Source: an uncultured Chloroflexia bacterium
GTDB lineage: Bacteria > Chloroflexota > Limnocylindria > Limnocylindrales > CSP1-4
Length of the DNA stretch: 64,000 nucleotides
Direction of reading: 5' to 3'
NCBI GenBank assembly: GCA_963709605.1
Contig: CAVPWX010000015.1
Span: forward strand, 72,684 to 136,683
A program made the translations under genes and the position numbers. This document shows, piece after piece, positions 1 to 17,617 of this stretch; position 1 is the stretch's first letter, and every line of letters starts with the position of its first letter. The notes below the pieces were generated by a model that saw nothing but the letters and a program-made list of their open reading frames with translations, did no database searches and was not told the origin of the DNA.

Positions 1-1
1 G

Positions 2-532
2 CTCTCCGGGGGCCAGAAGCAGCGCCTCTCGATCGCGCTGGCGCTGGTCGGCGATCCTCAGCTGGTCTTCTTCGACGAGCTGACCAGCGGGCTCGATCCC
101 CAGGCCCGCCACGCAACCTGGGATCTCGTCCGCGACGTGCGAGCCAAGGGGAAGACGGTCTTCCTGACGACGCACTACATGGAGGAGGCCGAGCGGCTGT
201 GCGACCGCGTCATGATCATCGACGCCGGGCGGATCGTCGCGCTGGACACCCCCGCCGCGCTTGTCCGTGCTCTCGGTGCCGAGCAGCGGATCGCCTTCAG
301 TGCGGACGGAATGGCCGACGAGGTCCTCGGGGCGCTGCGGGCGACCCCCGGGGTGGAGCGCGTCGAACGGTCGGGCGGGCGCGTCGTGGTGTACGGGCGG
401 TCTGACCAGCTCCTGTCGCCGATCCTGGACGTTCTCGAGGAAGCGCACCTGTCGTTCCACGATCTGCAGACCGAGCAGCCGAACCTCGAGGACGTCTTCC
501 TGGCCCTGACCGGGCGAGAGATGCGGGACTGA
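2..532 (+). CDS. ABC transporter ATP-binding protein, C-terminal part (5' end lies outside the window)
   Basis: The reading frame is open from base 2. It reads LSGGQKQRLSIALALVGDPQLVFFDELTSGLDP (ABC signature plus Walker B), followed by the H-loop region TTHYMEEAERL. An ABC-2 permease starts 15 nt downstream. Confidence 0.9.
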   Translation, partial: LSGGQKQRLSIALALVGDPQLVFFDELTSGLDPQARHATWDLVRDVRAKGKTVFLTTHYMEEAERLCDRVMIIDAGRIVALDTPAALVRALGAEQRIAFSADGMADEVLGALRATPGVERVERSGGRVVVYGRSDQLLSPILDVLEEAHLSFHDLQTEQPNLEDVFLALTGREMRD

Positions 533-546
533 GGGGCGCGACGGCC

Positions 547-1296
547 ATGTCGATGCGCGGACTGCCGATCCTGGCCTGGACGCATGCGAAGCTCTACCTG
601 CGTGAGCCCATTGCGACGTTCTTCACGGTCTTCTTCGCCCCTCTCATGCTCGTCCTGTTCGGGCTCATGTACGGCAACGAGCCGAATGAGGTCTTCGGTG
701 GCCTTGGGTCCATGGACGTCACGGTGCCGGCCTACCTGGGGATCATCATCGTGACGGTGGGCCTCATCGGCCTGCCCATCCAGACGGCGGTCAACCGTGA
801 GCTGGGCATCCTGCGCCGCTACCGGGTCACCCCGCTGCGCCCCCTGACCTACATCGTCGCCGACGTGACCTCCTACTGGGTCATGGCGCTGGTCGGCGTG
901 GTGGTCCTCGTCGTCGTCGGGAAGCTGGCGTACGACGTGCGGTTCGAGGGCAGCATCCTGAGCGTCCTGGCCGGCTTCACCCTGTGCACCCTGGCGTTCC
1001 TCGCGATCGGGTTCGTGATCGCGAGCTTCGCTCCCTCGGCGCGGGTCGCCCAGACGGTCGGGATGGTGGTGGCCTACCCGATGATGTTCCTGAGCGGGGC
1101 GACGATCCCGTACGAGCTGCTCCCGCCGACGGTCCAGCGGATTGCCGACTTCCTGCCGCTCACGTACGTCGTCAGGCTCATGCGGGGACTCTGGGTCGGC
1201 GAGCCATGGTCCGACCTCTGGCTCGAGGTGGGCGTGCTGACCGGCATCCTCGTTGTCTGTGGAGCCGTCTCGGCGCGATTCTTCCGCTGGGAGTAG
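547..1296 (+). CDS. ABC-2 type transporter permease
   Basis: 249-aa ORF with about 6 hydrophobic segments and a typical ABC-2 layout (e.g. YPMMFLSGATIPYELLP). It is tightly linked to the upstream ATPase. Confidence 0.85.
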   Translation: MSMRGLPILAWTHAKLYLREPIATFFTVFFAPLMLVLFGLMYGNEPNEVFGGLGSMDVTVPAYLGIIIVTVGLIGLPIQTAVNRELGILRRYRVTPLRPLTYIVADVTSYWVMALVGVVVLVVVGKLAYDVRFEGSILSVLAGFTLCTLAFLAIGFVIASFAPSARVAQTVGMVVAYPMMFLSGATIPYELLPPTVQRIADFLPLTYVVRLMRGLWVGEPWSDLWLEVGVLTGILVVCGAVSARFFRWE

Positions 1297-1347
1297 GGGC
1301 ACATCCGCCTTGCTCGGCGCCGGGTCCACCACGTGATTCCCCGCGAT

Positions 1348-1527
1348 ACCACATCGGGCAGGTCGGGCCGTTTGTCACTCGCCAACCCCGCTCACATCGG
1401 TCAGCGTCCCCTCAGCGGGAGGCTCTGACACGCGGCCCATGCCCAGGCCGCCGGGACCGCGCCGAGCCACCGGCGAGACCGAGCAGCGGAGACGCGTCCC
1501 GAGGCAAGCCTGAGTCGGGAGGGATCG
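1348..1527 (+). repeat. Copy 1 of a ~180-nt paralogous leader element (copy 2 is at 8993..9169); ends at the start codon of the downstream gene
   Basis: Manual alignment with 8993..9169. The first 60 nt are about 88% identical (ACCACATCGGGYAGGTCGGGCCGTTTGYCACTCGCCAA...CACATCGGYCAGCGT) and the whole element is about 70% identical. Weaker similarity extends about 40 nt further upstream. No credible ORF is present. Confidence 0.55.
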
Positions 1528-2937
1528 ATGCGAGCCACGTCCTCTGGCCGGCGCCGATTGGGCGTCGGTCTGTCCCTTTCCCTGGCGGTCGCCCTCCTGA
1601 TGACGGTTGTCGCGCCTGTCGGTGCCGCCACGGTGGGCGCCTCCTGGCAGGCGAAGGTCGGCAGCACCGGGGCGAATGGAACGGCGACGATCCAGGCGTA
1701 CACGACGGGGTCGGGGTCGCTCGCCCTCAAGCTCGCCAAGCTGAAGGCAGCCACCTACTTGCCCGTCACGCTCTCGAAGGGGACGTGCGCGTCCGTCGGG
1801 TCGCGGCTCATCACGTTCCCGGCGATCAGGACGACGAGCTCCGGCGCTGCTGTCCGGACGTCGAGCCTCACGGTCGCCCAGGTGACGAAGCTCAAGGCCG
1901 CGACGACGGGCACCGGGAAGATCGCCATCCGGGTCGGCAGCAGCACGACCGGCGGCACGAAGTGCGGCGTCTTCACGGTCCTCTATGCGCCGATCGGCAT
2001 CGTGATTCCGGCGGGATGGCCGGACGTGGCCGCGTTCCAGACCGCCCTCAAGACCGCCCCGTATGGCGCCCGGATCCTGGTCAGCCGGGACTCCGCCACG
2101 GAGAAGGCGGCTGTCGAGGCGTTGATCCGACAGGGCATCAAGGTCCTGATCCTCACGCCACAGGGCAGCGCGGCGGCCGCGGCGGCCGCCGATGAAGCCA
2201 GGTCCGCCGGCGTCAAGGTCATTGCCAATGACCGCCTGATCCTCGACACCGTTGCGGTCGACTACTACGTGACCTTCGACTGCCTGGCGGTGGGCGCGGC
2301 CCAGGCCCAGTACCTGATCGACCGAGCCGGCGGGACGAAGGGCAACAATCTGTACCTGTACGCCGGCAATGCCGCCGACAACAACTCCTTCGTGTTCCTC
2401 GAGGGTGCCTGGGAGAAGCTCCAGCCGAAGATCTCCGACGGCACGTTCGTGATCCGGAACTCGAGCGTGGCCGTTGGTTTCCAGGGCAGCCCCACCCTGA
2501 CCCATGACCAGCTGGCCCAGGTCATCGCCCAGGTCACGACGAACTGGGACTTCAACACCGCCCGGACCCTCGCCGCGGGCAACCTGGCGGCCCTGCCCGC
2601 GGCCGCCAAGGGCACGGCCTTCGTCCTGGCCCCCAACGACACCACCGCCCGCGCGATCGGGGAAGCCTTCGCGGCCGACAAGGACGTGACGAAGGCCTGG
2701 CTGACCGGCCAGGACGCGGAGAAGGCGTCCGTCCAGGCCATCATCAACGGGACGCAGGGGATGACCGTCTTCAAGGATCCCCGTGCGCGGGTGAAAGATG
2801 CCCTCGCCACCGCGGCGACCTTCCTGCGGGGCGGCACGCCGGTCGCGACCACCACTGTCAACAACGGCGTGATCGACGTCCCGAGCAAGCTCCTGCCGAG
2901 CGTCACGGTCACCAGGACAACGTCCAGGCGGCCCTGA
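1528..2937 (+). CDS. Secreted ChvE/xylose-type sugar-binding protein (periplasmic binding protein family) with an extra ~140-aa N-terminal domain; apparent C-terminal frameshift
   Basis: GGGAGGG RBS and a signal peptide (RRRLGVGLSLSLAVALLMTVVAPVGA). The C-terminal 320 aa resemble multiple-sugar-binding proteins (DYYVTFD, LTGQDAEKASVQAIINGTQGMTVFKD). After ...SVTVT the family-typical tail QDNVQAALIDTGYYKASDF... continues in another frame to a stop at 2994-2996. This implies a 1-nt loss near 2911-2913. Confidence 0.8.
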   Translation: MRATSSGRRRLGVGLSLSLAVALLMTVVAPVGAATVGASWQAKVGSTGANGTATIQAYTTGSGSLALKLAKLKAATYLPVTLSKGTCASVGSRLITFPAIRTTSSGAAVRTSSLTVAQVTKLKAATTGTGKIAIRVGSSTTGGTKCGVFTVLYAPIGIVIPAGWPDVAAFQTALKTAPYGARILVSRDSATEKAAVEALIRQGIKVLILTPQGSAAAAAAADEARSAGVKVIANDRLILDTVAVDYYVTFDCLAVGAAQAQYLIDRAGGTKGNNLYLYAGNAADNNSFVFLEGAWEKLQPKISDGTFVIRNSSVAVGFQGSPTLTHDQLAQVIAQVTTNWDFNTARTLAAGNLAALPAAAKGTAFVLAPNDTTARAIGEAFAADKDVTKAWLTGQDAEKASVQAIINGTQGMTVFKDPRARVKDALATAATFLRGGTPVATTTVNNGVIDVPSKLLPSVTVTRTTSRRP

Positions 2938-3020
2938 TCGACACGGGCTACTACAAGGCCAGCGACTTCACCGGCTCCTGGCCGGGCAAGCCGTAGTCCG
3001 ATCCGCGGCCTGGCGTGCGC

Positions 3021-3125
3021 GGATAGCCGACCCGCCACATGCAGCCTGGAGGGCCGGGACGGCTCTGCGTAACAGCACCGTGCTCAGGAGCCCGAGCCAA
3101 ACCGGTCCAGTTATCGTGTCGTCAC
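3021..3125 (-). repeat. Degenerate copy A of the tRNA-Gly 3'-half plus 68-nt arm repeat
   Basis: Aligns with 6150..6245 and 8820..8916 (gacccgcCacatgcagcCtggaGggccgggacggct.tgcgtaacagca.cgtgctcagg.gcccgagc...cagttatcgtgtcgt). The acceptor-side end is eroded. Confidence 0.7.
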
Positions 3126-3255
3126 CATTGGCGCCACGGCCAGCCAACCGCCGCGCCATGCGGTGTCGGCTCAAGCTCGAACCCGTGGAAGCAGTTCGCA
3201 CTGATCCTGGCGACGCGCGCCTCCGTGAGCATCCGCTCGAAGGGACACTCCCGGA

Positions 3256-4263
3256 TCAGGCGTCGGCCAGCGCTGCCCTGAGCGCCGGGATGACGGTGGA
3301 CCCGTATGCTTCCAGCTGCGCCTCCTCGTCCCCGCTCATCAGGTAGAGGTTGAACTGGTCGACGCCGACCCTGCTGAGCTCCCTGAGCCGTCGCACGTGT
3401 TCCTCGGGCGGGCCGACGATGGCGAAGCGATCCACGACGTCGTCGCTCACGGACGCAGCACTCGACGAGCCGAACTCGCCGTGGCGGCGTTCGTCGTTGC
3501 CCTCGCGACCTCGGATGTAGCCGGTCAACAATTCGGGCAGTTGATCGGCTGGATACCTGTTCACGAGGTCGACGACGTGACCGCTGACGAGGCCCGGGAA
3601 CCAGCGCACATGCTCACGGCACTCCTCGATGCGGCCCACGTGCGCTGGGGCCGCGGCCTGGACCTTGATCGATGAAGGATCCCGGTCGGCTGTTTCGGCC
3701 GCATCTCGCATGAGGCCGACCATCCAGCGGATCAGATCCGGATCCGCCAGCTGGAGGATCAGGCCGTCGGCGATGCGGCCGGCCATGGCGAGCGCCATCG
3801 GACCGTACCCGGCGATCCATGTGGGCAGCTGCCAACCCTTCGCCCAGGGGAGGCTCAGGTCAGCGCCCTCGTACTCGGTCGATCGGCCCTCGACGAGGTC
3901 GCGGATGACCGTGGCCGCATGCTCCAGCATCTTCATCGTGGTGGGAGGCTTGCCGAGCGAGCGGACCGAGGCGTCGCCGCGGCCGATGCCGAGGTCCATA
4001 CGGCCACCCGAGATCTCTTCGAGCGTCGCGAGAGCGCTCGCCGTCACGCTCGGGTCTCGCGTGGCCGGGTTCGTCACGCAGGTGCCGAGGCGCATGTGCG
4101 TGGTGTTGATGGCCATCAGCGTGAGAAGCGGGTAGACCTCCCTGAACGGCAGGTGATTGTCGAAGAGCCAGCCGTAGCTGAACCCGGCGGCCTCCGCCTG
4201 CCTCGTGAGCGCGACGAACCGTTCGGTGTCGTGGTCAGGCTTGAGCGTGAATCCGAAGTCCAT
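3256..4263 (-). CDS. LLM-class (luciferase-like) F420/flavin-dependent oxidoreductase
   Basis: 335-aa ORF. It reads MDFGFTLKPDHD...GFSYGWLFDNH...LGTCVTNPATRDP...GGRMDLGIGRGD, typical of methylene-H4MPT-reductase-like LLM proteins. Confidence 0.85.
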   Translation of the reverse strand: MDFGFTLKPDHDTERFVALTRQAEAAGFSYGWLFDNHLPFREVYPLLTLMAINTTHMRLGTCVTNPATRDPSVTASALATLEEISGGRMDLGIGRGDASVRSLGKPPTTMKMLEHAATVIRDLVEGRSTEYEGADLSLPWAKGWQLPTWIAGYGPMALAMAGRIADGLILQLADPDLIRWMVGLMRDAAETADRDPSSIKVQAAAPAHVGRIEECREHVRWFPGLVSGHVVDLVNRYPADQLPELLTGYIRGREGNDERRHGEFGSSSAASVSDDVVDRFAIVGPPEEHVRRLRELSRVGVDQFNLYLMSGDEEAQLEAYGSTVIPALRAALADA

Positions 4264-4427
4264 GGCTCGCAGCCTACACCGCGGCCTGCGCTCGACCAGA
4301 CGCCATGCTGTCCGCCCGCATCAGTCGTCCGCCGAGACCCTGGAGGCTGCATGTCGTGCTGGGCCAGCCCCCGGCCCTCCCCCAGGTGCCGGTCACGCCG
4401 GACTCTTCTGAGGCTGAGTGTCGCGCG

Positions 4428-5936
4428 TCAGAAGGTGACCGACACCTCCTCCGAGCACGCGCCCCCATCCGTCTCGCAGATTCGGTAGACGTAGGTCCCG
4501 CCGCCCACCCGGCCGATGCGGTCTGTGTAGGACCCATCATTGTCGGTGGTCGTGACGACGACGCCGTCCCGGTACACAGCCACCTGGCTCCCGTCGGCGC
4601 CACTCCAGGCGAGGTCGACGTACCACACCTTTCGCACCACGTACGGATTCGCCGCGAGGGTGATGCCCCCGGGGGGCGGCTCCACCCCGCCACCACCGCT
4701 GGCCGCGAAGGCGTCGACGAGGCCGTACCCGTACTGCGGGTCGCGTCCGGATGTCCCGAGATCGACGGCCGTCGCCGCCAGCTGCTCACGGAGCTCGTTT
4801 GCGACCCCGTACGCCCCGTCGTCATCGCTGAGCACGCCCGCGGCGAGCACGAGGGCGGCAGCGCCGGCGACGTGCGGCGCCGACATCGAGGTTCCCGACC
4901 CGAACTTGTAGTGGCAGTCGAGATCCCCGTCGCCGTCGCCGTCCTCGCACACCGGCTGCGGATCCAGGTAGCTGGCGCTCATGTCGCTCGGCCAGGTGGA
5001 GAAGACGCTGACGCCGGGCGCGCTGAGCTCCACCGCGGCGCCCGTGGAGGACCAGCACGGCCGCACGTTCGCGCTGTCGATGGCGGCGACGGCAATGACG
5101 CTGGCGAAGAGCGCAGGGTAGGCGACGTTGCTTCCCTTGCCGGCGCAGTTGCCGCTGTTACCGGCGGCGGCGACGAGCAGGATGCCGGCTTCGTACGCCC
5201 GTTGCATCGCCTCCTCCGCGATGCTCGAGTAGTCGCCGCGCCCGATGCTCATGTTGACGACGACGGCGGTCGGGTTCCCGTTGTTCCAGATGTCGTCGAT
5301 CGCCGCGATGTGGCGGCTCCAGGCGCCTACGCCGTCCGCATCGAGCGTCTTGTAGGCGATCACGGTCGCTTCCGGCGCAACGCCAACCACTCCGGTTTCC
5401 TCGCCGTGCAGCGCGGCTGCCACGGTCCCGGCGACGTGCGTCCCATGCCCGTAGTCATCGTCGGCGTTCTGCGTTTCCGTCACGTAGTTCCAGCCATGCT
5501 CGCAGTTCACCGCGAGCTCGAGGTGGTCGCAGTCGATGCCGCTATCGATCACCGCCACGCGCACCCCGGCTCCCAGGTTGCCGGTGGCATGGACCTCGTC
5601 GGCCCGCACGTGCGCGATGCCCCAGTCGTGAGTCGGCCGGTACTCCAGGGCATAGAGGAGGGAGTCGGGCTCGACGACCGCGACGCGCGGGTTGCGCGAG
5701 ATGCCCGCGAGCGCAGCCTCCGGCACGGTCGCGGCGACGGCGGGGACGATCCCGAACGAGCGGGTGACGTCGGCGCCCAGACCCCTCAGACCGGCAACGT
5801 CGGCTGCTGTCGGAGGAGCTGTGAACCGGATCAGAACCGGAACCCGCTCCATCGATGCACCCAGCACGGGTGCAGGCATGAGCGTCGTGATGAGCATCGC
5901 CGTGGCGACGACTGCCAGACACCGACGACCAGACAT
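4428..5936 (-). CDS. Secreted S8 (subtilisin-family) serine peptidase with a C-terminal beta-sandwich domain
   Basis: Catalytic triad contexts VAVIDSGID, HGTHVAGT and GTSMSAPHVAG. The start is chosen at MSGRRCLAVVATAML (signal peptide), which has a GGAGG RBS upstream. The longer track ORF reaching 6248 runs through repeat copy B. Confidence 0.88.
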   Translation of the reverse strand: MSGRRCLAVVATAMLITTLMPAPVLGASMERVPVLIRFTAPPTAADVAGLRGLGADVTRSFGIVPAVAATVPEAALAGISRNPRVAVVEPDSLLYALEYRPTHDWGIAHVRADEVHATGNLGAGVRVAVIDSGIDCDHLELAVNCEHGWNYVTETQNADDDYGHGTHVAGTVAAALHGEETGVVGVAPEATVIAYKTLDADGVGAWSRHIAAIDDIWNNGNPTAVVVNMSIGRGDYSSIAEEAMQRAYEAGILLVAAAGNSGNCAGKGSNVAYPALFASVIAVAAIDSANVRPCWSSTGAAVELSAPGVSVFSTWPSDMSASYLDPQPVCEDGDGDGDLDCHYKFGSGTSMSAPHVAGAAALVLAAGVLSDDDGAYGVANELREQLAATAVDLGTSGRDPQYGYGLVDAFAASGGGGVEPPPGGITLAANPYVVRKVWYVDLAWSGADGSQVAVYRDGVVVTTTDNDGSYTDRIGRVGGGTYVYRICETDGGACSEEVSVTF

Positions 5937-6131
5937 GGCTCCCCTCCATCCTATGGCGTCACCGCCGGTCACCGTCATAGGGGGCCGCTGGCGCGAGACG
6001 TCCGCCTCATCTGCGCGTTGCACGCAGTCAGCCCTTAAATCGACGGCGAGGCGGGAGGCGGCGTCAAGTGCCAGACAGCCTGATCTGAACCGCGACACAG
6101 CCTGCGTGTCGCCAGGGAGATCAAAGGGGGT

Positions 6132-6245
6132 TGGAGCGGGAGACGGGGATCGAACCCGCGACATGCAGCTTGGAAGGCCGGGACGGCTATGCGTAACAGC
6201 ATCGTGCTCAGGGGCCCGAGCGGAAGTGTCAGTTATCGTGTCGTG
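6132..6245 (-). repeat. Copy B of the tRNA-Gly 3'-half plus 68-nt arm repeat
   Basis: Bases 6132-6178 are identical (47/47) to the 3' part of the tRNA-Gly gene at 11207-11253, covering the CCA end, T arm and anticodon loop. The next 68 nt are shared only with copies A and C. Confidence 0.85.
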
Positions 6246-6569
6246 CAAAGGGGAGTTTGAGCGCTCTTAGCATTAGGTCAAGATGAGGTAGGTTGCAGTG
6301 GAAGGGGACAGAAGCATGAAGGTCAGCGTGTTCGACTGGATGGGCTGAACGACTGCACCTAGGCTGGACAATGGGAGTAGGCGAGAAGCTCAGACACGAG
6401 GGCTTTGCAAGGCGGCAGGGACGGCGCAGAGCCCCTGGTGAGTTCCAGCGGCCGCGATGATATTAGAGACGAAGGCCTCTAGACGAGGACCGGAAATACG
6501 TCCACGACGGGATCGACCACCCTTGGCGGTCGATGCAACAGTTGGCGATCGGGCGAGCCTCTCTCTGGT

Positions 6570-7116
6570 ATGACGGGTTTAAAGACGGCCACGATGTCGA
6601 TGACCGCGGCGCTGCGGCAGGCAGTCGCGGGGGACGAGGCCGCGTTCGCCCGGATCGTGGCGACCTACCACGCGGACATGATCCGAGTCGCCTACGGCAT
6701 CTGCGGCGAGCCGGACCTGGCCCTCGACGCGGTGCAGGCGGCCTGGCTGATCGCCTGGCGGAAGCTGCGAACGGTCGGGAACCCGAGCGCTCCGGTCGTG
6801 GCTCGTGGCGGTGGCCGCGAACGAGGCTCGCCACGACGGTCCGACGCGGCGCATCGGGGCTCGGGTGGTCGAGATCGAGCTCGATGATGCCGGACAGCGG
6901 CGCGCCGGACCCTGCCGATGACGATCGGGCGGGTGGACCTGGTGAACGCCCTGCGCCACCTCAAGGCCGGACGAGCGCTCGCTCATCGCGCTGCGCTACG
7001 GGGCCGAGCTGCGACTCGAACGAGATCGGGCCGCTGCTGGGCATCTCGGCCTCGGGCGTGCGCGCACGACTGCTCGGCTCATGGGCCGCCTGCGAAAGGA
7101 GCTCGACGATGGCTGA
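6570..7116 (+). pseudogene. ECF (sigma-70 family) sigma factor, disrupted by several frameshifts
   Basis: Region 2 is intact (EAAFARIVATYHADMIRVAYGICGEPDLALDAVQAAWLIAWRKLRTV). The remaining pieces lie in different frames: LRSWLVAVAANEARH..., VDLVNALRHLK..., ...SLIALRYGAEL, SNEIGPLLGISASGVRARL and MGRLRKELDDG*. Confidence 0.7.
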
Positions 7117-8584
7117 GCTCGACGTCTTCGAGGATCGCTTCACGGCGGCCTATCGCCGGTACCTCGACGAGGTCGCCGACGGAGGTGGAGCCGCGAGGTC
7201 GCGCGGATCGTCACCGCCGCGCACCCGGCCGGCCACGGGCGGGCGTCTGGCCCGGCGCTCAGGCCGGCACCCGCGTTCGCCTGGCTGGTGCTGCTTGCCC
7301 TGCTGCTGGCCGCCTGGGCGCGGCCGCCTTCTTCGTTGGCTCGCAACGGTTGCAGAGGCTCCCGGCTGTGATACCGCCCGTCAGCAGACTGCACCACGCG
7401 GCACGCACACCACGTGAGCGAAGGCCGTACGTCGCGCGAGCGCAACGGGAACACACTGCGCGATCAGGATGGACGGCACTCGAATGCTGGGGCAGCAACT
7501 GGTACGGCGAGGCGACGGGCCAAAGGCGATGGCACTACATCGCGTGAGCGCAAGCGCGAGGGGCACACTGCGCGATCGCACAACGGGACGCTGGCTGCTG
7601 GGGCTGGAACCGTATGGCAGGCGACTCCGCCAGCGGCACCTACCTCGGTGAGCGCGGGCTGGCATCACACGTGCGCGATCAGGACGGACGGCGCCTCGAG
7701 GCGAGGAGAAACGGCGACGAGACGACGCGCGTCCGGGACATACGTGCGTTGGTGCGGGGTTTGGCATACCTGCGCATCCGCGACCGACGGGGCGCTGTCC
7801 TGCTGGGGGCTTGAGATGGCCAGGTTGAACACGCCGGCCGGCACCTACGTTTTCGTGGACGCCTTCAGCCAATGCGCGATTGGACTGACGGGACGCTTGC
7901 CTGCTGGCGTCGGCATCGACGAGCCGACGCCACCTCCCGGCACCTATGTCGCCGTGAACGGAGAGTGGAGCAGACGCTGCGCGCTCGGCACCGACGGGAC
8001 GCTGACCTGTTGGGGCCCCGAGGCATCGCCTCCGCCCGCCGGCACATTCACCGCCTGACCGGCGACTTGCCAGATTGGGAGGCCTGCGCGATCCGGACCG
8101 ACGGGAAGCTCACGTGCTGGGGCGTCGACTGGATCGCGAAGACCGATCCCGGTGGCTGGATAGGGCCCCCTTCGCACTTGATGCCGACATGCGCAGCATC
8201 GTCCCCGCTTCCGAGGTCCCGGGGATCGTCGCGGTACGTCGAGTTCGGGTCGGTCGGGTCGGGCTGCAGCGTCATCATGCCGGCGACGACCTTCTCGGTC
8301 AGAGCCATCCACTTCGCAGCGAACCTTGAGCGCGAGGTGCGGGCGGGCGAAACCGTGACGTCACGCTGTCGGTGGAGATGGCGACTTGCTCGTAAGAGCC
8401 GGCGTCCCGGACGTTCGACGTGCAAGGCGACTGCGTAGGCGGACTCCTGTACTGGGCCTACGCTGCCCCGCCCTGGAGTGAGCTGTCCGCCTTCCCGATC
8501 TCCTGGACGACCGGCCACTACCGCCTGGACCTCTCCGCGGGCGGGAAGGTGCTCGCACAGGGCGAGTTCGACGTCGGGCCCTAG
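7109..8584 (+). pseudogene. Degraded anti-sigma-like / RCC1-like repeat protein gene(s)
   Basis: The start MAELDVFEDRFTAAYRRYLDEV overlaps the sigma factor stop. A TM-like segment (AFAWLVLLALLLAAW) follows in another frame. At least 5 copies of the motif GTY..V....HTCAIRTDG.L.CWG are scattered over all three + frames. The terminal fragment ...ISWTTGHYRLDLSAGGKVLAQGEFDVGP* ends at 8584. Confidence 0.55.
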
Positions 8585-8801
8585 CGGGGGGCCGGCCCCG
8601 GCTCGGCACCGGCCGGCCCGCTCTCCTTGCGGGATGAGAGGCGCACCGGACGTCCGATGGTCGATTGTCCTCAGGAAGTGAACCGTGGCGGCTCCGAAGG
8701 TCGCCGTTGAGCGTTGCAGCACGCGATTCGGCGACATCGACCGGTCGCCGAGAGGGCCGGTCCGCGCAGGCTGCGTGTCGCCCCGAGCACGAACAGGGGA
8801 A

Positions 8802-8916
8802 TGGAGCGGGAGACGGGGATCGAACCCGCGAAATGCAGCTTGGAAGGCCGGGACGGCCATGCGTAACAGCACCGTGATCAGGGGCCCGAGCGAAGGTGTC
8901 CAGTTATCGTGTCGTG
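8802..8916 (-). repeat. Copy C of the tRNA-Gly 3'-half plus 68-nt arm repeat
   Basis: About 94% identical to copy B over 115 nt, with one mismatch to the tRNA core. The sequence just below it (cccgagcacgaac) also resembles the sequence just below the real tRNA. Confidence 0.85.
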
Positions 8917-8992
8917 ACGACCGACGGCAAGCCCCCGCGGGGCTGGCTGCCAACCTCGCTCGACGCCTTGTCCATCAGGTGGTTGCCTGCGC

Positions 8993-9169
8993 ACCACATC
9001 GGGTAGGTCGGGCCGTTTGCCACTCGCCAAGCCGGCCCACATCGGCCAGCGTTTCCTCTGCGAGAGGCGATGAAACGCGGTTCAACCCCTGGCCGCGTGA
9101 CCGTGTCGAGCCACTGGCGAAGCCGACCCGCCGATCGCGCCCCGAGGCGAACGCACGAACCGGAGACAG
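8993..9169 (+). repeat. Copy 2 of the ~180-nt paralogous leader element (copy 1 is at 1348..1527); ends at the start codon of the downstream gene
   Basis: See copy 1. Two small hairpins are kept in both copies through C-to-U changes that give G-U pairs: GCGGCC/GGCCGC versus GCGGTT/GGCCGC, and CGCCG/CGGCG versus TGTCG/TGGCG. Confidence 0.55.
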
Positions 9170-10151
9170 ATGAGAGCAGTCGTTTGCACGGACTACGGAC
9201 CGCCGGATGTCCTTCGAGTCAGGGACGTGCCGAAGCCCGTTCCGAAGGACGACGAGGTCCTTGTCCGAATCCGCGCCACGACCGTCAGCGCGGCCGATTG
9301 CGAGCTGCGGCGGTTCGACTTCGCTCCCTGGATCTGGGTGCCCATGCGGCTTGCGTTCGGCATCTTCAGACCGCGACGACGTGTGCTCGGACAGGAGCTC
9401 GCCGGTGACGTCGAGTCGGTGGGCAAGAAGGTCAGGTCGCTCAGGAAGGGCGACCGGGTCTTCGCGGCGACGGGCATCCCCCTGGGAGCCTACGCGGAGT
9501 ACATCTGCCTGCGCGAGAACCCCCCGACCGGGGTGATCGCGACGATGCCGGCGAACCTCGACTACGCGGAGGCTGCGGCCGTTCCCTACGGAGGAGGCGA
9601 GGCCCTGTTGTATCCTGCGGAAGGCGGGCGTCCGGAGCGGACAGAGGGTCCTGGTCAACGGCGCGGGAGGGAGCTTCGGCACGTTCGCGGTCCAGCTCGC
9701 CAAGGTCCTCGGGGCGCACGTGACCGCGGTGGACAGCGCGCCGAAGCTGGAGATGCTGCGCACGATCGGCGCGGATCGCGTCATCGACTACGCCCAGGAG
9801 GACTTCACCGACAGCCCCGAGACCTACGACGTCATCTTCGACGTGGTCCGCGGCACACCGTCCGCTCGCATGGTTGGGTCGCTGACCGAGAACGGATGGC
9901 TGCTCATGGCCAATCCGGGCTTCCTGCAGATCGTTCGCGCCAGGTGGGCGGCGAGGGGAAGCAGGAAGCGGGTGTCGTTCACGGCATCGACCTTGACGGG
10001 CGAGGACCTTGCCTACCTGCGCGGCCTGGTCGAAGCGGGGCGACTGCGCCCGGTCGTCGACCGGCGCTTCCAGCTCGAGCAGATGGTCGAGGCTCACAGG
10101 TACGCCGAGGCCGGCCAGAAGCTGGGGAACGTCGTTGTCGTCGTCGCCTAG
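9170..10151 (+). pseudogene. Zinc-type alcohol dehydrogenase / NADPH:quinone oxidoreductase (MDR family) with one apparent frameshift
   Basis: The N-terminus reads MRAVVCTDYGPPDVLRVRDVPKPVPKDDEVLVRIRATTVS... and stays in frame up to ...AVPYGGGEAL. The Rossmann part ILRKAGVRSGQRVLVNGAGGSFGTFAVQLAKVLGAHVTAVD...GNVVVVVA* continues in another frame. The shift lies near 9607-9612. Confidence 0.75.
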
Positions 10152-10211
10152 TTGCGGCCACTGAAGCCGGTACACGTTGGGCCGAGCGGGCTCGAACAGA
10201 GAGGGAACACC

Positions 10212-11178
10212 ATGAAGGCCGTCATCCAGACCGGCTACGGCTCGGCGGACGTGCTCCAGCTCAAGGAGATCAACAAGCCCGTTGCCGCCGATGACGAGGT
10301 GCTGGTGCGCGTCCAAGCGGCATCGCTTGCCGCCGGTGACTACTTCGGCATGAGGGGCGTGCCCTTTCCCATCCGGATGTACGTCGGGTTCCCGAGGCCG
10401 AAGAAGGACTACGTCGTGGGGGTCGATCTGGCGGGGCGCGTCGAGGCGGTCGGCAAGAACGTGACGCGCTTCAAGCCGGGCGATGAGGTGTTCGGCGGGT
10501 GCAGCCGCGCATGCGCCGAATACACGTGCGCCAAAGAGGACCAGCTCGTTCCCAAGCCGAACAACCTGACGTTCGAGCAGGCCGCGGCCGTGCCCACGTC
10601 GGCCGTGGCCGCTCTGCAGACGCTTCGCGATCACGGCAAGGTGCAGCCCGGGCAGAAGGTCCTGATCAACGGCGCGTCGGGGGGCGTGGGAACCTTCGCC
10701 GTGCAGATCGCCAAGGCCCTCGGGGCGGAAGTGACCGGCGTGTGCAGCACGGCGAACGTGGACATGGTCGGATCGATCGGAGCGGACCATGTCATCGACT
10801 ACACCAAGGAGGACTTCACCCAGGGCGAGCCGCGCTACGACCTGATCCTCGACAACGTTGCGAGTCACTCGTTCGCGGACTACAGGCGCGTGCTCGAGCC
10901 CGGGGGGACGCTCATGCCCAACAGCGGGCATGCCGGCATGGGCTACGTCATCAAGGCGTTCCTGCTGCCGCTGTTCGTGCGCCAGGTGGAGCGCCCGTTC
11001 GTCGCGAGGCCGAACCAGGACGACCTGATCACCCTGAAGGGCCTGGTCGAGGCCGGGCGGGTCACGCCTGTCATCGACCGAGACGTATCCGCTGAGAGAG
11101 ACCGCTGAGGCCTTTCGGTATCTGGACCAGGGTCACGCTCACGGCAAGGTCATCATCGTCGTGGCGAACGGTGAGTGA
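10212..11178 (+). pseudogene. Second MDR-family NADPH:quinone oxidoreductase; apparent 1-nt insertion near the 3' end
   Basis: Reads MKAVIQTGYGSADVLQLKEINKPV...INGASGGVGTFAVQIAKALGAEVTGV. After ...VTPVIDR the conserved tail TYPLRETAEAFRYLDQGHAHGKVIIVV continues in the +1 frame to a stop at 11176-11178. The extra base is at about 11082. Confidence 0.75.
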
Positions 11179-11206
11179 GTAGCGTCCCGAGCACGAACCG
11201 AGGAAG

Positions 11207-11282
11207 TGGAGCGGGAGACGGGGATCGAACCCGCGACATGCAGCTTGGAAGGCTGCCGCTCTGCCAGCTGAGCTACTCCCGC
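11207..11282 (-). tRNA. tRNA-Gly (anticodon UCC), CCA encoded
   Basis: The reverse complement is GCGGGAGTAGCTCAGCTGGCAGAGCGGCAGCCTTCCAAGCTGCATGTCGCGGGTTCGATCCCCGTCTCCCGCTCCA. It has a 7-bp acceptor stem GCGGGAG/CTCCCGC, an anticodon stem GCAGC/GCTGC with loop CTTCCAA, and a T loop TTCGATC. Confidence 0.93.
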
Positions 11283-11407
11283 CCGGGCGCACGGCGCGCG
11301 GGCCGCGGCGAGCCCAACGGTACCACGGCCGACGGCCGGGGCTGCCGGGCCGAGAGAGCTGCAGCGGTTGGCGCGGCGTGGGCACCGCGGCCGCGCTGGG
11401 CAAGCCG

Positions 11408-13246
11408 TCAGCGACGGGTGACACTCGGCGGGCTCCAGTTGCCGAGCCCGTCGACCGCGCGCACCTGGACCGCCACCTTCGAGGTGCGACTCCGCAGCGG
11501 CAGGGCGACCGAGGTCGCGGAGGTGCGGAGGGTGGCGACCTTCCACGGTCCCCCGTTGACCGAGTAGCGGACCCGGTAGGCGACTGGCCCATGGGCATCC
11601 TTGGCCGCCTTCCAGCGTGCCCGCCAGGTGCCCGACGTGGTCGAGAACCAGAGCTCGGGCGCGATCGCGAGCACCGGGCCCGTCCGGTCGAGGTCGACCG
11701 TGGCGGCGCGCGGCTTCGAGAGGGTGCCGCCCGCGTCACGGACCTGGACCCACACGGTTCGCGGCCCGTCCCTGCCCGCGCCGCTCACCGACACCGCGAA
11801 GGACGGCGGCACCGTGATCCCGGAGCCGTCGGCGGTCGGGGCCGGGAGCGGTCGCCAGGCGTTCCACGTCGTGCCGTCCCGCCCGAAGCGGACCTCCGTG
11901 ACCGGACGGCTCCCGGGGGTGGCGGTGACCGCCGCGCTGACGGCCAGGTCCCTGGTGGCGCTCGGGGAGAGCGAGAGGGAGGCCACCCGGGGCGGCCCGA
12001 ACATCGACTTGAGGAGGTCCCAGTGCCCCGGGACGCCGCGGTCGTAGCCGAGCGCCCAGATCCCGACGCCGGCAAGGCCCCGGGAGACGGCGAGGTCGTA
12101 CTTCGGGCGCAGCGACGTCGGCGTGTCGTAGAAGACCTGGCGCCAGGTCGACGCCGCCTGGTCGTACCAGGCGTACCAGCTGACCGCCTCGCCGGGGTCG
12201 TAGAGGAGCGGCACGCCGAGCGACGCCGGCTTGCCGATGTTGCGGCGAGGGGTGTAGGTGCTGCCGGTGCCGGTCCGGGCGGCGCCGAGCTCCGCGGATT
12301 CCGTGGGCCAGCTGATGCCGTAGTACGGCAGGCCCAGGATCACCCGGCCCAGGGGAACGCCCTCTGCCGCGTATCGGTCCACCGTCCAGCGGAGATCGAG
12401 GCCGCCCGTGGTGGAGCGCCCGACAAGCGGCGCGATCGCGCCCGGGTTCGAGGAGTTGGTCCGGTAGGCGTAGCCCATGATGAAGATGCGGTCGGCGCCG
12501 GCATCGGCCGCCAGCTTGGCCATCTGGGCGCCAGAGTTGTTGGCGTTCGTCGCCACCGAGACGGTCGCCGACGGGTTGTCGGCCCGCAGGGCGGCCCGGA
12601 GGTTCGCCACGAAGACACCGTACTCGTCGAACCAGGAGGTCCGGATGAGCTCGACGTCGACGTTGACGCCCTGGGCGCCCGTCTCGCGGACGAATGCCTG
12701 CAGCTCGGAGATCGTCCGGGCCTGGCGGGCGGGGTCGCCGAAGAAGGTCTCGTTCTTGTCGTAGCCGAAGCTCGTGAAGCAGATCTCGACGCGCACGCCG
12801 CGGGCCCGCGCGGCGGCAACGGCGGCGCGCCCGAGCGACCCGGTGATCGCCCTGTAGCCGGACTGGGTCGTGTCGAGCGTCCCGCTCCCCGTCCAGGTGA
12901 CGGAGAAGAGGCCCAGAACCGAGAGGGCGTTCCAGTCGACGTAGTCGAGCGTCTCGCTGCTCATCTCCCAGTACGGGAGGTAGCCGTACACGTCGCCCGA
13001 GAGGTGGTCGCTCATCGGCGACTCGGGGCTGCCGATCGGCGGTGTCGTCGGCGCGGGCGCGGGGGTCTCCGACGGCTCCGGGGTCGGCGCGAGCGTGGGC
13101 TCAGGGGTCGGCGTCTCGATCGGCGACGGCGTCGGCTCCGGGTCCTGCGCCCGAGCCGCCTGCTCGACGGCCGGGGCAGCGAATGCCGACGCGAACACGA
13201 GCAGCGCGAGGACGACGATCGCCGTCCGTCGGGCGTGGCCGGTCAC
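11408..13246 (-). CDS. Secreted GH18 glycoside hydrolase (chitinase / spore-cortex-hydrolase-like) with C-terminal Ig/FN3-like domains
   Basis: GTG start at VTGHARRTAIVVLALLVFASAFA (signal peptide). A Pro/Thr linker follows, then a GH18-like core (GVNVDVE, IFIMGYAY, LGLPYYG, GVGIWALGYD). Confidence 0.85.
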   Translation of the reverse strand: MTGHARRTAIVVLALLVFASAFAAPAVEQAARAQDPEPTPSPIETPTPEPTLAPTPEPSETPAPAPTTPPIGSPESPMSDHLSGDVYGYLPYWEMSSETLDYVDWNALSVLGLFSVTWTGSGTLDTTQSGYRAITGSLGRAAVAAARARGVRVEICFTSFGYDKNETFFGDPARQARTISELQAFVRETGAQGVNVDVELIRTSWFDEYGVFVANLRAALRADNPSATVSVATNANNSGAQMAKLAADAGADRIFIMGYAYRTNSSNPGAIAPLVGRSTTGGLDLRWTVDRYAAEGVPLGRVILGLPYYGISWPTESAELGAARTGTGSTYTPRRNIGKPASLGVPLLYDPGEAVSWYAWYDQAASTWRQVFYDTPTSLRPKYDLAVSRGLAGVGIWALGYDRGVPGHWDLLKSMFGPPRVASLSLSPSATRDLAVSAAVTATPGSRPVTEVRFGRDGTTWNAWRPLPAPTADGSGITVPPSFAVSVSGAGRDGPRTVWVQVRDAGGTLSKPRAATVDLDRTGPVLAIAPELWFSTTSGTWRARWKAAKDAHGPVAYRVRYSVNGGPWKVATLRTSATSVALPLRSRTSKVAVQVRAVDGLGNWSPPSVTRR

Positions 13247-13277
13247 TCCCCGACCTTGGCAGCCCGGGCTGGATCCG

Positions 13278-14282
13278 TCAAACGGTGTCGGTCGCCTCGG
13301 GAGTCGGGGGCTTCCGGCGCTTCGGTCGGCGGGAGACCGGCGCCTCGGCGGCCGGGGGCTCGGTCGCCTGGGACGTCGCGAGCTGGGGGGCCTCCGTCGC
13401 CTCGGCGGCAGCGGGCTCGGTCGTCCCGGCAGCCGGCGGTTCGACGGCCAGGGGCTCAGCGGCGGGCTCCGGTGGCTCTGCCGGCACCCGGCCGGCCTCG
13501 AACCCCGCGCGGGCCGCAAACTCGGCCGAGATGCCCGCGGCGATCAGGGCGGCCTCGGCCCGGTCCCGGATGCCGAGCATCTGCTTCCGGGTCATGGCGA
13601 AGACGCCGAAGCCGAACGCGCTGCCCATCACGCCTGCGGCGGGGCTCTCGGGGGCGGGCATGCGAACGCGGAAGCGCTCCACGAGGCGAGTCCGACGGTC
13701 GTCGTCGAGCGGACGGAGGACGAACGCCCAGCTGGCGGCGAACCCGGGCATCGAGGGCATCATCCGCCCGGCCGCCTTCAGGTTGGCCGGCGTCTCCTCG
13801 ACGGCCTCGCCGGCGGCCTTCCTGGCACGGGCCGCCTCCACCTGCTGCTGCACCGTCGCCTCGTCGGCATAGAGCACCAGCGAGCTGCCCGGCTCGATGG
13901 CCCGGACCACGAAGGCGGTGTCGGGCGAGTTCGGGACGAGGTCGCCGACCGCGAGCTGCTGGAGCTCCGGGACGATCCGGTCGACGCTCGCCCCCTTCAT
14001 GTCGACCACGTCATAGCTGTACCAGCCGGCGCGGTTGTAGCCCATCTGGACGAGCCAGGGCCAGACGGCGTCCGGCGGGGCGCCGATCTCCACGCCCCGG
14101 GTCTCCACGACCGTCGCGTCCGCGACCAGGTCGTCGCCGGGCAGGACGAGGTCGGCCTCGGCCGGGTCGACGCCCCAGGACCGCCACCACGGTCGGATGG
14201 CGAATGCGTACGTTGCGCCGGCCGCGGCGGTGGCGGCGACGGCTCCGATGATCAGCTTCCCTGCGCGCATGGCGAGTGGCAC
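13278..14282 (-). CDS. SRPBCC (START/polyketide-cyclase-like) family protein with a low-complexity Ala/Pro/Glu tail
   Basis: Has an N-terminal TM segment. It then reads PPDAVWPWLVQMGYNRAGWYSYD...AFVVRAIEPGSSLVLY, typical of SRPBCC proteins. Its stop lies 32 nt upstream of the GH18 start. Confidence 0.75.
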   Translation of the reverse strand: MPLAMRAGKLIIGAVAATAAAGATYAFAIRPWWRSWGVDPAEADLVLPGDDLVADATVVETRGVEIGAPPDAVWPWLVQMGYNRAGWYSYDVVDMKGASVDRIVPELQQLAVGDLVPNSPDTAFVVRAIEPGSSLVLYADEATVQQQVEAARARKAAGEAVEETPANLKAAGRMMPSMPGFAASWAFVLRPLDDDRRTRLVERFRVRMPAPESPAAGVMGSAFGFGVFAMTRKQMLGIRDRAEAALIAAGISAEFAARAGFEAGRVPAEPPEPAAEPLAVEPPAAGTTEPAAAEATEAPQLATSQATEPPAAEAPVSRRPKRRKPPTPEATDTV

Positions 14283-14743
14283 CTCCGATCCTGCATCCTG
14301 CGGCCTCGCGCGGCCCTGTGGGGAGTGCCGGAGGGCACTCCGATGCAGGCCGGTGCGGGTGGCGGGGCCGGGTGCCTCTCGGCGGGCGGTGGACCTCGCG
14401 CGCGGCCCGGGGGGGCCCGCGGGCGGTGGTGCGCGGGTCGGGCAGTTTCCTCGTCGATGCGGCGTACCTGATCACTAACGGACTTCGAGCCTCGTCCGAG
14501 CGTCGAACCGGGTCGCGTCACCGGTCCGGGCTGGCTCGCATCCTCGTCAGCGCGTCCCCCATGGGCCAATAGCGAGGATAGCCAGGGGCGTTCCCGCCGC
14601 CCGCTCCCCCTCGACTTCGTTTGTGATCCCCAGGCGCGCATTGGCGAGGAAACCGCGCCCGCGGGCGGCGCCCGTGGGCGGCGGGCGTGCCGCGGTCGGC
14701 GAGCACCCGGCCCAGGCCACGCCCGACCCGCTACGCTTTCGCC

Positions 14744-15016
14744 ATGTGCCGCAGCATCCGTCCCCTCCGCGGCCGCGCCGCGCCTCCCGCCACCGAGGGC
14801 GACGTCCGCGACGCCGCCCGCCAGTACGTCCGCAAGGTCGCCGCGATGCGCCCCGCGGCGCGGGACGCCGCGGCGTTCGAGGCGGCGGTCGACGAGATCG
14901 CCGCGGCGACCACCCGACTGCTGGCGGCGATGGGCTCGCCGCCGGTCCCCGGGCCGGCGACGCCGCCCTCGGCATGGCCGGCACGCCCGGGCCGCCCGCG
15001 TCCCGCACGCGCGTGA
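14744..15016 (+). CDS. DUF2277 domain-containing protein
   Basis: Reads MCRSIRPLRG...ATEGDVRDAARQYVRKV...AFEAAVDEIAAATTRLL, which matches the conserved DUF2277 N-terminal pattern. The start is taken at the internal Met of the track ORF. Confidence 0.65.
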   Translation: MCRSIRPLRGRAAPPATEGDVRDAARQYVRKVAAMRPAARDAAAFEAAVDEIAAATTRLLAAMGSPPVPGPATPPSAWPARPGRPRPARA

Positions 15017-15107
15017 GCCGCCGCATGCGCCGGGAGCCGGCCACGCACGGACAGCCGGCCACGCACGGACAGCCGGCACGCTCGGGACGTCCGCGCCCCG
15101 CCCACCC

Positions 15108-15956
15108 GTGACCGACGACGCGCTCCGGGCCCAGTGGGCGGCGGTCGCCGAGCACTACGGCACGGGCTGGTCGCACGCCGGCGGCGCCGACCTCGCCTGG
15201 ATGGTCGAGGCGCTCGCCCCGCGCCCGTCCGACCGCGCCATCGACCTGGGCGCAGGCGCCGGCCATGCCAGCCTCGCCCTCGCCCCCCACGTCGCCCGTG
15301 TCGACGCCGTCGACCCGACCCCGGAGATGCTGGCGGTGGCGGGGCGCCTGGCTGCCGAGCGCGGCATCGGGAACATCGTCCCGACGGAGGCCGCCGCGGA
15401 GGCCCTGCCCTTCCCGGACGCCACCTTCGACCTGGCGATGAGCCGCTTCTCGATCCACCACTGGCCCGACCCGGGACGGGCCCTCGCCGAGGTCGCCCGC
15501 GTCCTCCGGCCGGCGGGGCGGCTCGTGATCGTCGATCTCGTCGCCCCCGAGGACGCCCGACTGGACGCCTTCCTCAACGCCGTCGAGCTGCTTCGCGACC
15601 CGACCCATGCCCGGTCGCTGCGCCCGTCGGACTGGCGGGCCGTGATCGCCGGGGCGGGCCTGGCCGGCGACATCGTCCGCGAGTGGCGCTTCCGCCACGA
15701 CACGGAGGACTGGCTGGCGCGCACCGCTCCCGCGCCCTGGCGCGCCGAGGCCGTGCGCCGGCTCCTTCGCGAGGCGCCGCCGCTGGCGCGCGCGGCGTTC
15801 GAGATCGCTCCGGACGGCTCGGGGTTCACGGTCGGGGCGGTCGTGGTGGCCGCCACGGCACGGAACGGCGCCGGGCGGGCGGCATCGAACGGAGCCGGGC
15901 GCACGGCACCGCGGGGCGCCGGGCGGGCGGCAAGCGAGGCCAGCCCGGACGGCTAG
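15108..15956 (+). CDS. Class I SAM-dependent methyltransferase
   Basis: Motif I AIDLGAGAGHASLAL, then DLAMSRFSIHHWPD and LRPAGRLVIVD. GTG start. Confidence 0.8.
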   Translation: MTDDALRAQWAAVAEHYGTGWSHAGGADLAWMVEALAPRPSDRAIDLGAGAGHASLALAPHVARVDAVDPTPEMLAVAGRLAAERGIGNIVPTEAAAEALPFPDATFDLAMSRFSIHHWPDPGRALAEVARVLRPAGRLVIVDLVAPEDARLDAFLNAVELLRDPTHARSLRPSDWRAVIAGAGLAGDIVREWRFRHDTEDWLARTAPAPWRAEAVRRLLREAPPLARAAFEIAPDGSGFTVGAVVVAATARNGAGRAASNGAGRTAPRGAGRAASEASPDG

Positions 15957-17443: not shown

Positions 17444-17617
17444 GGCCCGGATGGTACGCCGCGCGCCCGGCCCGCGAGATGCCGGTCCGCCCGCCCCGGG
17501 AACGTCCGCCGCCGAGGGCGCCGGGCCGGAAACGGCGCCCGGGCGACGCTCGCTCGCCGGGATTCGTGCGACTAAACCGGTTCACGAAGACCGTCGTGCG
17601 CGGTATCATCGGCGGCC

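Follow-up and report, generated by a model that had tools for sequence, protein, structure and literature searches.

A tandem array of small cassettes without a recombinase gene, bounded by copies of the tRNA-Gly(UCC) 3' segment, in an uncultured Chloroflexia bacterium

The array behind tRNA-Gly(UCC)

The stretch of DNA analysed here (64,000 nt, referred to as the window; positions 72,684 to 136,683 of contig CAVPWX010000015.1, assembly GCA_963709605.1, from an uncultured Chloroflexia bacterium) encodes a single tRNA, an intact tRNA-Gly(UCC) at minus-strand positions 11207-11282 (ARAGORN; 68 bits for the Rfam tRNA family), behind which lies a tandem array of three cassettes, of 2.4, 2.7, and 3.1 kb, the whole spanning positions 3031-11282, tRNA gene included. 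An earlier note, made by reading the letters of this DNA, had pointed to the tRNA gene, on which ARAGORN and Rfam agree, and to repeats of its last ~47 nt at 8802 and 6132, which alignment bears out. The repeated segment, designated here the attachment (att) core, comprises the 3'-terminal 47 nt of the tRNA, beginning in the 5' strand of the anticodon stem and closing with CCA (11207-11253), and at the tRNA gene itself it constitutes the attL-type end of the array. Copy B (8802-8848) matches the tRNA at 46 of the 47 positions, with one mismatch, and copy C (6132-6178) at all 47. On the tRNA 5' side of each extra core, the 5' half of the tRNA is replaced by a shared segment of approximately 70 nt, which we name the P arm, found at 8849-8920 (B), at 6179-6246 (C), and at 3055-3122, beside a third, incomplete core copy, D. 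The note had described this arm as a 68-nt sequence; its presence at all three sites stands, while the identity between the arms of B and C is 91% and not the ~94% originally given. The shared DNA that the note had seen just beyond the CCA end turns out to be a second conserved segment, the P' arm, which copy B has in full (8686-8801), which is shortened at C and behind the tRNA, and which D lacks. Dinucleotide-preserving shuffles yielded an expectation of 0 matches for each of three test patterns, and no arm or core copies beyond B, C, and D are present in the 64-kb window. A direct repeat reaching from the anticodon stem/loop of a tRNA to its 3' end, with the intact tRNA at one end of the array, is the arrangement by which tRNA-integrated elements of the lambda type are recognized.

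Copy D forms the attR-type end of the array (3031-3122, minus strand). When aligned with a relative (L001), the window lacks 181 nt at this site, from core nucleotide ~19-22 into the flank of a binding-protein gene, and the two ends of the deletion share the microhomology CGCGGGT(T)CGG. True tRNA homology at D is limited to 3037-3054, the anticodon stem-loop part of the core, and what resembles a degenerate T-arm there is flank DNA. The third copy proposed near 3021 is thus real, but it was thought to be eroded, and the alignment shows D to be a derivative of a deletion at a microhomology, not a copy eroded by substitutions. Cuts of this kind recur among the junction cores, after nucleotide ~18-26, with the anticodon stem-loop kept and the T-arm and acceptor end lost (window 3031-3054; L024 4270-4300; viral contig L062 7253-7277). 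In the window and in L024 the cut-offs are deletions at short microhomologies, and in L062 the core is cut near the same point, where an unrelated element abuts.

The cargo of the three cassettes, as assigned by Pfam, is the one that the note had read from the translations: a pair of MDR oxidoreductases, a sigma factor with an RCC1-like protein, and an S8 protease with a luciferase-like (LLM) oxidoreductase. Cassette E1 (8849-11206, minus strand) is made up of a truncated P' arm (11167-11206), cargo, and its own P arm, the cargo being two MDR/zinc-ADH genes on the plus strand, the first at 9170-10148, frameshifted in comparison with homologues and preceded by a cyclic di-GMP (c-di-GMP)-II-GCG riboswitch (9054-9137, plus strand; Rfam, 51 bits), the second at 10152-11108 or 11175. 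Cassette E2 (6179-8801, minus strand), delimited by its own P arm and by an end-to-end alignment with locus L017, encodes an extracytoplasmic function (ECF)-type sigma factor (~6570-7110, plus strand) and a protein with RCC1 repeats (~7109-8581, plus strand; Pfam RCC1_2), both frameshifted. Cassette E3 (3055-6131, minus strand, with its own P arm) encodes an S8 subtilase (within 4428-6248, minus strand) and a luciferase-like monooxygenase (3256-4263, minus strand), both recognized by Pfam. The sigma factor, RCC1-like, and first MDR genes switch reading frame relative to intact homologues from other loci (tblastn), in agreement with the decay of cargo noted earlier, and part of these frameshifts may be errors of long-read sequencing instead of decay. 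The cassette DNA has a G+C content of ~68%, as opposed to 72-79% on the 5' side of the tRNA.

Related arrays and the anatomy of their junctions

The junction of P arm, core, and P' arm is by no means confined to the window, as it is found more than 50 times in 35 other loci, belonging to uncultured genomes of the Chloroflexia/Limnocylindrales type and to metagenomes. When one genome for each of 185,579 species was scanned with 20 specified P-arm bases, three loci emerged, all from metagenome-assembled genomes (MAGs) of uncultured Chloroflexia, and in each of these tRNA-Gly(UCC) is followed by one or two arm-plus-core copies, while a metagenome scan with a looser arm pattern contributed 27 more contigs. 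Since these scans of collections relied on exact patterns, they would overlook arms that have diverged. Local BLAST of the window and the first 40 loci, with the P arm, the core, the P' arm, and the tRNA 5' half as queries, identified 66 cores in 36 sequences, 14 of them being tRNA genes and the remainder junction copies; the sequences include the three MAGs, the 27 contigs, and further relatives. Successive cores are spaced 1.4-3.9 kb apart (median 2.2 kb), and the longest array (L028) holds at least five or six cassettes. Cassette cargo is very varied, including signalling cyclases, sigma factors, oxidoreductases, hydrolases, and transporters, and is encoded in both orientations relative to the junction; the names attached to homologous proteins are Candidatus Limnocylindrales or Chloroflexota. 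Four relatives (L033, L034, L035, and L040), inspected through precomputed Pfam assignments over the array plus 10 kb on each side, have one common backbone, in the order glycogen genes, methyltransferase, DUF2277, (glycoside hydrolase family 18, GH18), tRNA-Gly, the array, (ABC-2 transporter), aldo-keto reductase, PALP, hexapeptide transferase, DUF4395, and polyketide cyclase.

By far the commonest cassette encodes an adenylate cyclase/AAA_16/TPR protein of 1170-1220 amino acids with an N-terminal double zinc ribbon. This cassette occurs in L002, L003, L011, L021, L028, L033-L035, and L040, usually adjacent to the tRNA, and in L033 and L034 a paralogue of the cyclase is encoded 8-12 kb further along the backbone; the array of the window does not contain it. 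Insertion sequences (IS) are met in two of the arrays. In L018, inverted junctions at 104-214 (plus strand) and 5752-5865 (minus strand) surround 5.5 kb with an IS256-family transposase and a GH5 cellulase, which suggests an inversion or an IS-mediated rearrangement within the array, and in L026 an IS21 element is inserted immediately after a core.

The most complete site of the window is junction B (8686-8920, minus strand), an attP-like hybrid with both arms entire. In junction C (6092-6246, minus strand) the P' arm is partial (6092-6131). In the 37 distinct junctions compared, conservation of the P arm sets in sharply at GACGACACGATAACTGGACAC, ~69 nt before the core, and lasts up to the core; nothing is conserved upstream of GACGACACGATAACTGGACAC, and the arm is kept across unrelated cassettes. 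The proximal P' arm, of ~40 nt, TTCGTGCTCrGsACGACACG(ATAA/CAGC)CTG, follows 36 of 50 cores. The motif ACGACACGATAACTG (motif A) stands in direct orientation in both arms, at approximately -69 and +22, and is kept in most copies, and the decamer CCTGAGCACG of the P arm has its inverted complement, CGTGCTCAGG, in the P' arm. Viral contig L062 retains motif A and a 47-nt spacing despite an otherwise diverged arm, which shows motif and spacing to be the conserved features of the arm. The ACGACACGATAACTG repeats, in this arrangement, look like arm-type binding sites of a lambda-type (heterobivalent) tyrosine integrase, and would be bound by such a protein. In several junctions (L006, L007, L010, L011, L020, L023, and L027) the core runs directly into unrelated DNA, as is expected for the terminal attR of an array.

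One could ask whether the repeat is a recombination site at all, and not a product of faulty assembly, or an RNA module, structured or regulatory (a tRNA-like 3' element, a terminator, or a promoter), that was duplicated along with genes. The junction does hold the T-arm of the tRNA and, in its P arm, a small hairpin, which would suit an RNA. Against this, the architecture is found in more than 30 independent assemblies from several projects, the cargo is oriented both ways relative to the junction, and Rfam matches real tRNA only. The RNAalifold consensus of the 37 distinct junctions shows nothing but the tRNA arms and one P-arm hairpin of 5 bp, with no compensatory changes, the pairs being either invariant or varying on one side, and therefore the conservation is at the level of the primary sequence, as for protein-binding DNA. 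With neither covariation nor an Rfam match, the structured-RNA reading of the junction was rejected, and we regard this whole class of explanations as very improbable.

In comparisons between loci, each cassette behaves as one unit. With its two junctions included (6132-8915), cassette E2 of the window corresponds over its whole length to L017 1579-4441, at 80% identity, and E1 (9629-11253) aligns with L017 (3-1625) at 87%, the latter alignment including the truncated P' arm of E1 and ending exactly at the 5' edge of the core. The order of these two cassettes is not the same: outward from the tRNA, the window has E1 followed by E2, and L017 has another cassette, then an E2-like, then an E1-like one. 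The E1-type truncated P' arm has three different upstream neighbours, the tRNA in the window, an E2-like cassette in L017, and a methyltransferase cassette in L009, and E1 with the same truncated P' arm is also present in L019/L028. Likewise, the monooxygenase part of E3 matches L002 (982-2098, 89%) and L039 (4054-4308, 91%), in each case behind a different cassette. L038 is 94.6% identical to the window over 1044-3122 and 100% identical over 11207-11323 (117 nt, the tRNA and its flank), and between the truncated D site and the tRNA it carries one different cassette of 2.4 kb, X (DUF2938, TetR, and PEMT), while L039 has, in this order, D, X, one full junction, and the end of E3 with the monooxygenase. 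With these contents, the arrays of the window, L038, and L039 differ by whole cassettes. Of the two conditions that the note had set jointly as refuting its reading, the first, the same three intervals in perfect synteny among relatives, does not apply, and the second, the lack of an integrase-linked copy of the arm, applies so far in the collections searched.

The D site also indicates where the exchange occurred. The core remnant of 18-22 nt and the deletion at D are common to the window, L038, and L039, and the adjacent P arm is that of E3 in the window and that of X, clearly diverged, in L038 and L039, so that the two cassettes must have been exchanged in the portion of the core that corresponds to the anticodon stem-loop. 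A crossover at this point is established for tyrosine integrases with the anticodon loop as their target, one of the known preferences for sublocations within tRNA genes. Cores within one array, in addition, differ at a T-loop position, A versus T (L001, L004, L012, L017, and L028), and these differences favour separate acquisitions over duplication in place.

How the cassettes may move

An integrase gene inside the element, beside its att site, would be expected for a typical integrative element, and none is encoded here. Pfam scans of the open reading frames (ORFs) of the window cassettes revealed no Phage_integrase (PF00589), Resolvase (PF00239), or Recombinase domains, as the earlier note had concluded for the three intervals, and none of ~40 further ORFs of the window (11-64 kb) encodes a recombinase, which brings the window ORFs scanned with a negative outcome to ~50. 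The same was the case with 107 ORFs supported by G+C content at third codon positions (GC3) in 30 other loci, no recombinase being present among the 25 commonest of the 98 families listed; the individual Pfam scans were performed on one representative per homology cluster and, for later loci, on representatives of at least 200 amino acids, and small singleton ORFs were covered solely by the 25 commonest families. The only mobility genes that these scans showed in the 30 loci are those of the IS256-family transposase (L018) and of the IS21 pair (L026), and the relatives L033, L034, L035, and L040 encode no recombinase in the 10 kb to each side of their arrays.

Viral and plasmid sequences were likewise searched. 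Junction B, compared by blastn with phage and plasmid collections, was matched in its tRNA part only, and four arm or core patterns, among them a core pattern of 46 nt, had 0 matches in IMG/VR; a match to a shorter core pattern was dismissed as an unrelated tRNA-Gly. A 15-mer of motif A produced 38 matches, 37 of them due to chance, and one real, the viral contig L062 (IMGVR_UViG_3300046505_000116), in which motif A, a diverged spacer of 47 nt, and the first 26 nt of the core (7253-7346, minus strand) directly adjoin an element with a P4-like primase, a DNA methylase, and a terS-like gene. This arrangement shows that other mobile elements insert beside these cores. Relatives of the L062 primase in Limnocylindrales are part of ~8.7-kb elements that encode a serine recombinase (L089, L094). 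As these elements are neither located at tRNA-Gly nor in possession of the arm, they do not identify the enzyme that moves the cassettes.

Small intervals free of integrase genes could, in principle, each be an independent stump of a full-sized integrative element or prophage, their size accidental and the units themselves not mobile. Deletion is the standard route to cis-mobilizable elements, or CIMEs (PMC5704250), deletions do hit the junctions under study (D, L024), and the window cargo shows decay. We nevertheless find this explanation improbable. Not one integrase remnant is left in ~50 junction-bounded intervals of 36 loci, most of the lengths fall between 1.4 and 3.9 kb, and individual small cassettes are met again, with their boundaries unchanged, in other arrays, in other positions, and in other orders, a recurrence that makes independent decay an unlikely source.

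The reading that we favour, with moderate confidence, is the serial site-specific insertion of att-bounded cassettes lacking a recombinase, moved in trans by an unlinked tyrosine integrase. The succession of attL, hybrid, and attR sites that the earlier note had proposed for serial insertions is supported by the 35 other loci, by the reordering of cassettes, and by the whole-cassette differences. The anatomy of the repeat, its distribution over a family of loci, the variation by cassettes with breakpoints at the core, and the lack of a linked recombinase are observed; from these data we infer the type of the enzyme, its action in trans, and its activity at present. A circular cassette would carry an attP-like site of ~155 bp or more, composed of the P arm, the 47-nt core, and the P' arm, and would integrate either into the segment of tRNA-Gly(UCC) reaching from the anticodon stem to the 3' end or into an existing junction, with the crossover in the anticodon stem-loop, no further than ~22 nt into the core. 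Each integration would regenerate the tRNA and push the older core outward, the expected layout being tRNA-core-[P'-cargo-P]-core-[P'-cargo-P]-core-flank, and the reverse reaction, between any two cores, would remove one or several cassettes. The long conserved arms with their repeated motif suggest a heterobivalent tyrosine integrase assisted by accessory factors. As no cassette encodes an integrase, the enzyme would have to act in trans, and it may be encoded elsewhere in the genome or on a rarely sampled helper element, the cassettes being excised, inserted, and reshuffled from there.

Several observations weigh against this reading, and they are largely the ones on which a different account can be built. 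According to this account, which we hold to be rather unlikely, old integrations made the junctions, no dedicated integrase is left, and the shuffling is now carried out by homologous recombination with the junctions as portable homology, cassettes being lost between direct repeats and gained or replaced through double crossovers with incoming DNA. The junctions are 150-230 bp long, and their copies are 85-95% identical over at least 115 nt, enough for RecA-dependent exchange and for homologous recombination to yield some of the rearrangements. In orthologous cassettes the arms (P 88%, P' 80% identity) are hardly better kept than the cargo (82%), and much of the window cargo is frameshifted, as in drifting DNA. 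In one population, the array is the same in each of the 24 contigs read with an identical cyclase, which speaks for a stable array and indicates that activity is not high. A copy of the arm next to a recombinase, for which the note had suggested looking, was not found by exact patterns in the 185,579 species genomes, in the metagenomes of the Joint Genome Institute (JGI), or in IMG/VR, nor did any of the searches, whole genomes lying outside the scans, detect an integrase able to act on the junction sites, and no circular form of a cassette was observed. Homologous recombination, on the other hand, does not readily account for the exchange between E3 and X exactly at D, where 18-22 nt of core are shared and the P arms are diverged. 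The sharp edge of conservation at motif A across unrelated cargo suggests a constraint on protein-binding sites, and L062 points the same way, with motif A and its spacing maintained in an arm that has diverged elsewhere.

Movement in trans by an unlinked integrase could be part of something larger, and we put this forward tentatively, as a possibility on the unlikely side: a dedicated gene-capture platform at tRNA genes, similar to integrons, in an uncultured lineage of Chloroflexota of the Limnocylindrales type, in which an unlinked chromosomal integrase would shuffle a large pool of 1.4-3.9-kb cassettes, each consisting of cargo and a ~155-bp attP with arm-type sites, with tRNA-Pro(GGG) maybe serving as a second site (see the stack in L031, below).

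Stacked att-bounded elements without a recombinase have precedents, and the claim of the earlier note that such an array is not a standard annotated feature has to be qualified in this regard. The closest known systems are CIMEs, tycheposon islands, and additive tRNA islands. CIMEs are att-bounded elements without genes for integration or transfer that are stacked by accretion (PMC5704250). The cassettes described here, like the CIMEs of the ICESt1/ICESt3 family in streptococci, are bounded by attL and attR and are free of integration and transfer genes. CIMEs are described as decayed integrative conjugative elements (ICEs) or integrative mobilizable elements (IMEs), typically situated beside a functional relative and moved in cis by its integrase, whereas here ~50 cassettes of 1.4-3.9 kb include the same units recurring in several genomes, and no related integrase-bearing element was seen in or near any array, or in arm-pattern scans of genome, metagenome, and viral collections. 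The tycheposons of Prochlorococcus, 937 in number, were found and counted as integrase-carrying elements, with modules for integration and replication common to their types, and where a partial tRNA had no recombinase it was treated as a remnant (bioRxiv 10.1101/2020.12.28.424599). They likewise place cargo at tRNA genes, push older elements into the island, and leave partial tRNA copies between elements; the arrays described here share the tRNA targeting but not the recombinase and replication genes, and the recombinase-less form, with complete conserved arms, is the only one seen.

Integrons and clusters of attC sites lacking integron integrases (CALINs) also consist of small cassettes, mostly of one or two genes, with varied cargo, a site of their own, and no recombinase of their own, and their arrays, too, differ between close relatives. 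In contrast to integrons, no intI, attI, or Pc is present at the array, which has at its head a tRNA gene, with GH18 and glycogen genes beside it and no recombinase; the site combines a tRNA 3' half and arm motifs in direct repeat, shows no covariation, and is not the imperfect-palindrome hairpin of attC; and the cargo is encoded in both orientations, with leaders of its own such as riboswitches. The ssrA-specific islands of Dehalococcoides are also from Chloroflexota, in tandem at one small-RNA gene, and bounded by direct repeats of its 3' end (PMC3146451). Xer-dependent modules (integrative mobile elements exploiting Xer, IMEX, and pdif modules) utilize 28-bp dif-like XerC/XerD sites, to which the junction bears no resemblance by eye, no search for dif-like sites having been run. 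The Dehalococcoides islands are said to carry integrase genes of their own and shorter direct repeats. Literature searches returned no description of such arrays in Limnocylindria or Chloroflexia; what we rate as new is a pervasive family of cassettes, made up of cargo and site, with complete lambda-type att sites, anchored at a tRNA gene, and with no linked recombinase.

If a recombinase does act in trans, minimal arrays of cargo-plus-site cassettes would not be peculiar to integrons and could evolve from att systems that target tRNA genes, and the exchange of single accessory genes would be explained in a poorly known lineage that is abundant in soil, sediment, and freshwater. If the arrays are indeed a capture platform, they would represent a cassette system that uses lambda-type att sites in place of attC hairpins, and an element class reduced to cargo and site. 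If homologous recombination is all that operates, the locus would still be an additive flexible island whose history of growth can be read from its junctions. For practical purposes, the junction (P arm, core, and P' arm) is a precise sequence tag for mining metagenomic cassette pools, the ~155-bp site is a defined substrate for candidate integrases, and island finders that depend on integrases would miss these arrays.

The left flank and a stack at tRNA-Pro

On the far side of D the window encodes a periplasmic sugar-binding protein (1528-2937, plus strand; Pfam), preceded by a c-di-GMP-II-GAG riboswitch (1409-1493, plus strand; Rfam, 54 bits). This gene was considered as the conserved chromosomal flank of the array, and this reading was rejected, since a homologue is found inside an array at tRNA-Pro in L031; it is also contradicted by L034, in which the tRNA-Gly array directly abuts the ABC-2 transporter genes. 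By this comparison the gene left of D may itself be cargo and not part of the core genome, and, going by the synteny with L034, the ABC transporter and the core genes are to be expected beyond position 1 of the window. The array in L031 (8109-21482), from a related MAG, is a comparable stack at tRNA-Pro(GGG), in which the final ~22 nt of this tRNA and a terminator-like flank recur at 17695 and 21101, the homologue of the sugar-binding protein is encoded in the first interval, and no recombinase is present in the 13 kb of the stack. The phenomenon may thus not be limited to tRNA-Gly.

The two c-di-GMP-II aptamers of the window, the GAG type before the sugar-binding protein gene and the GCG type before the first MDR gene, belong to leaders (1348-1451 and 8993-9096) that are 83% identical over 104 nt, and L031 has similar leader repeats at four places ahead of cargo genes. 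Control by riboswitches of the c-di-GMP type may therefore be frequent for cassette cargo. As to base composition, the G+C content is 67-70% over window positions 1-11000, a segment that takes in the array and the genes to its left, and 72-80% over 11500-17500. Tandem repeats of 24 nt (13288-13441) and 57 nt (15854-15932) lie in the very GC-rich segments 13278-14282 and 15108-15956, and probably correspond to low-complexity segments of proteins.

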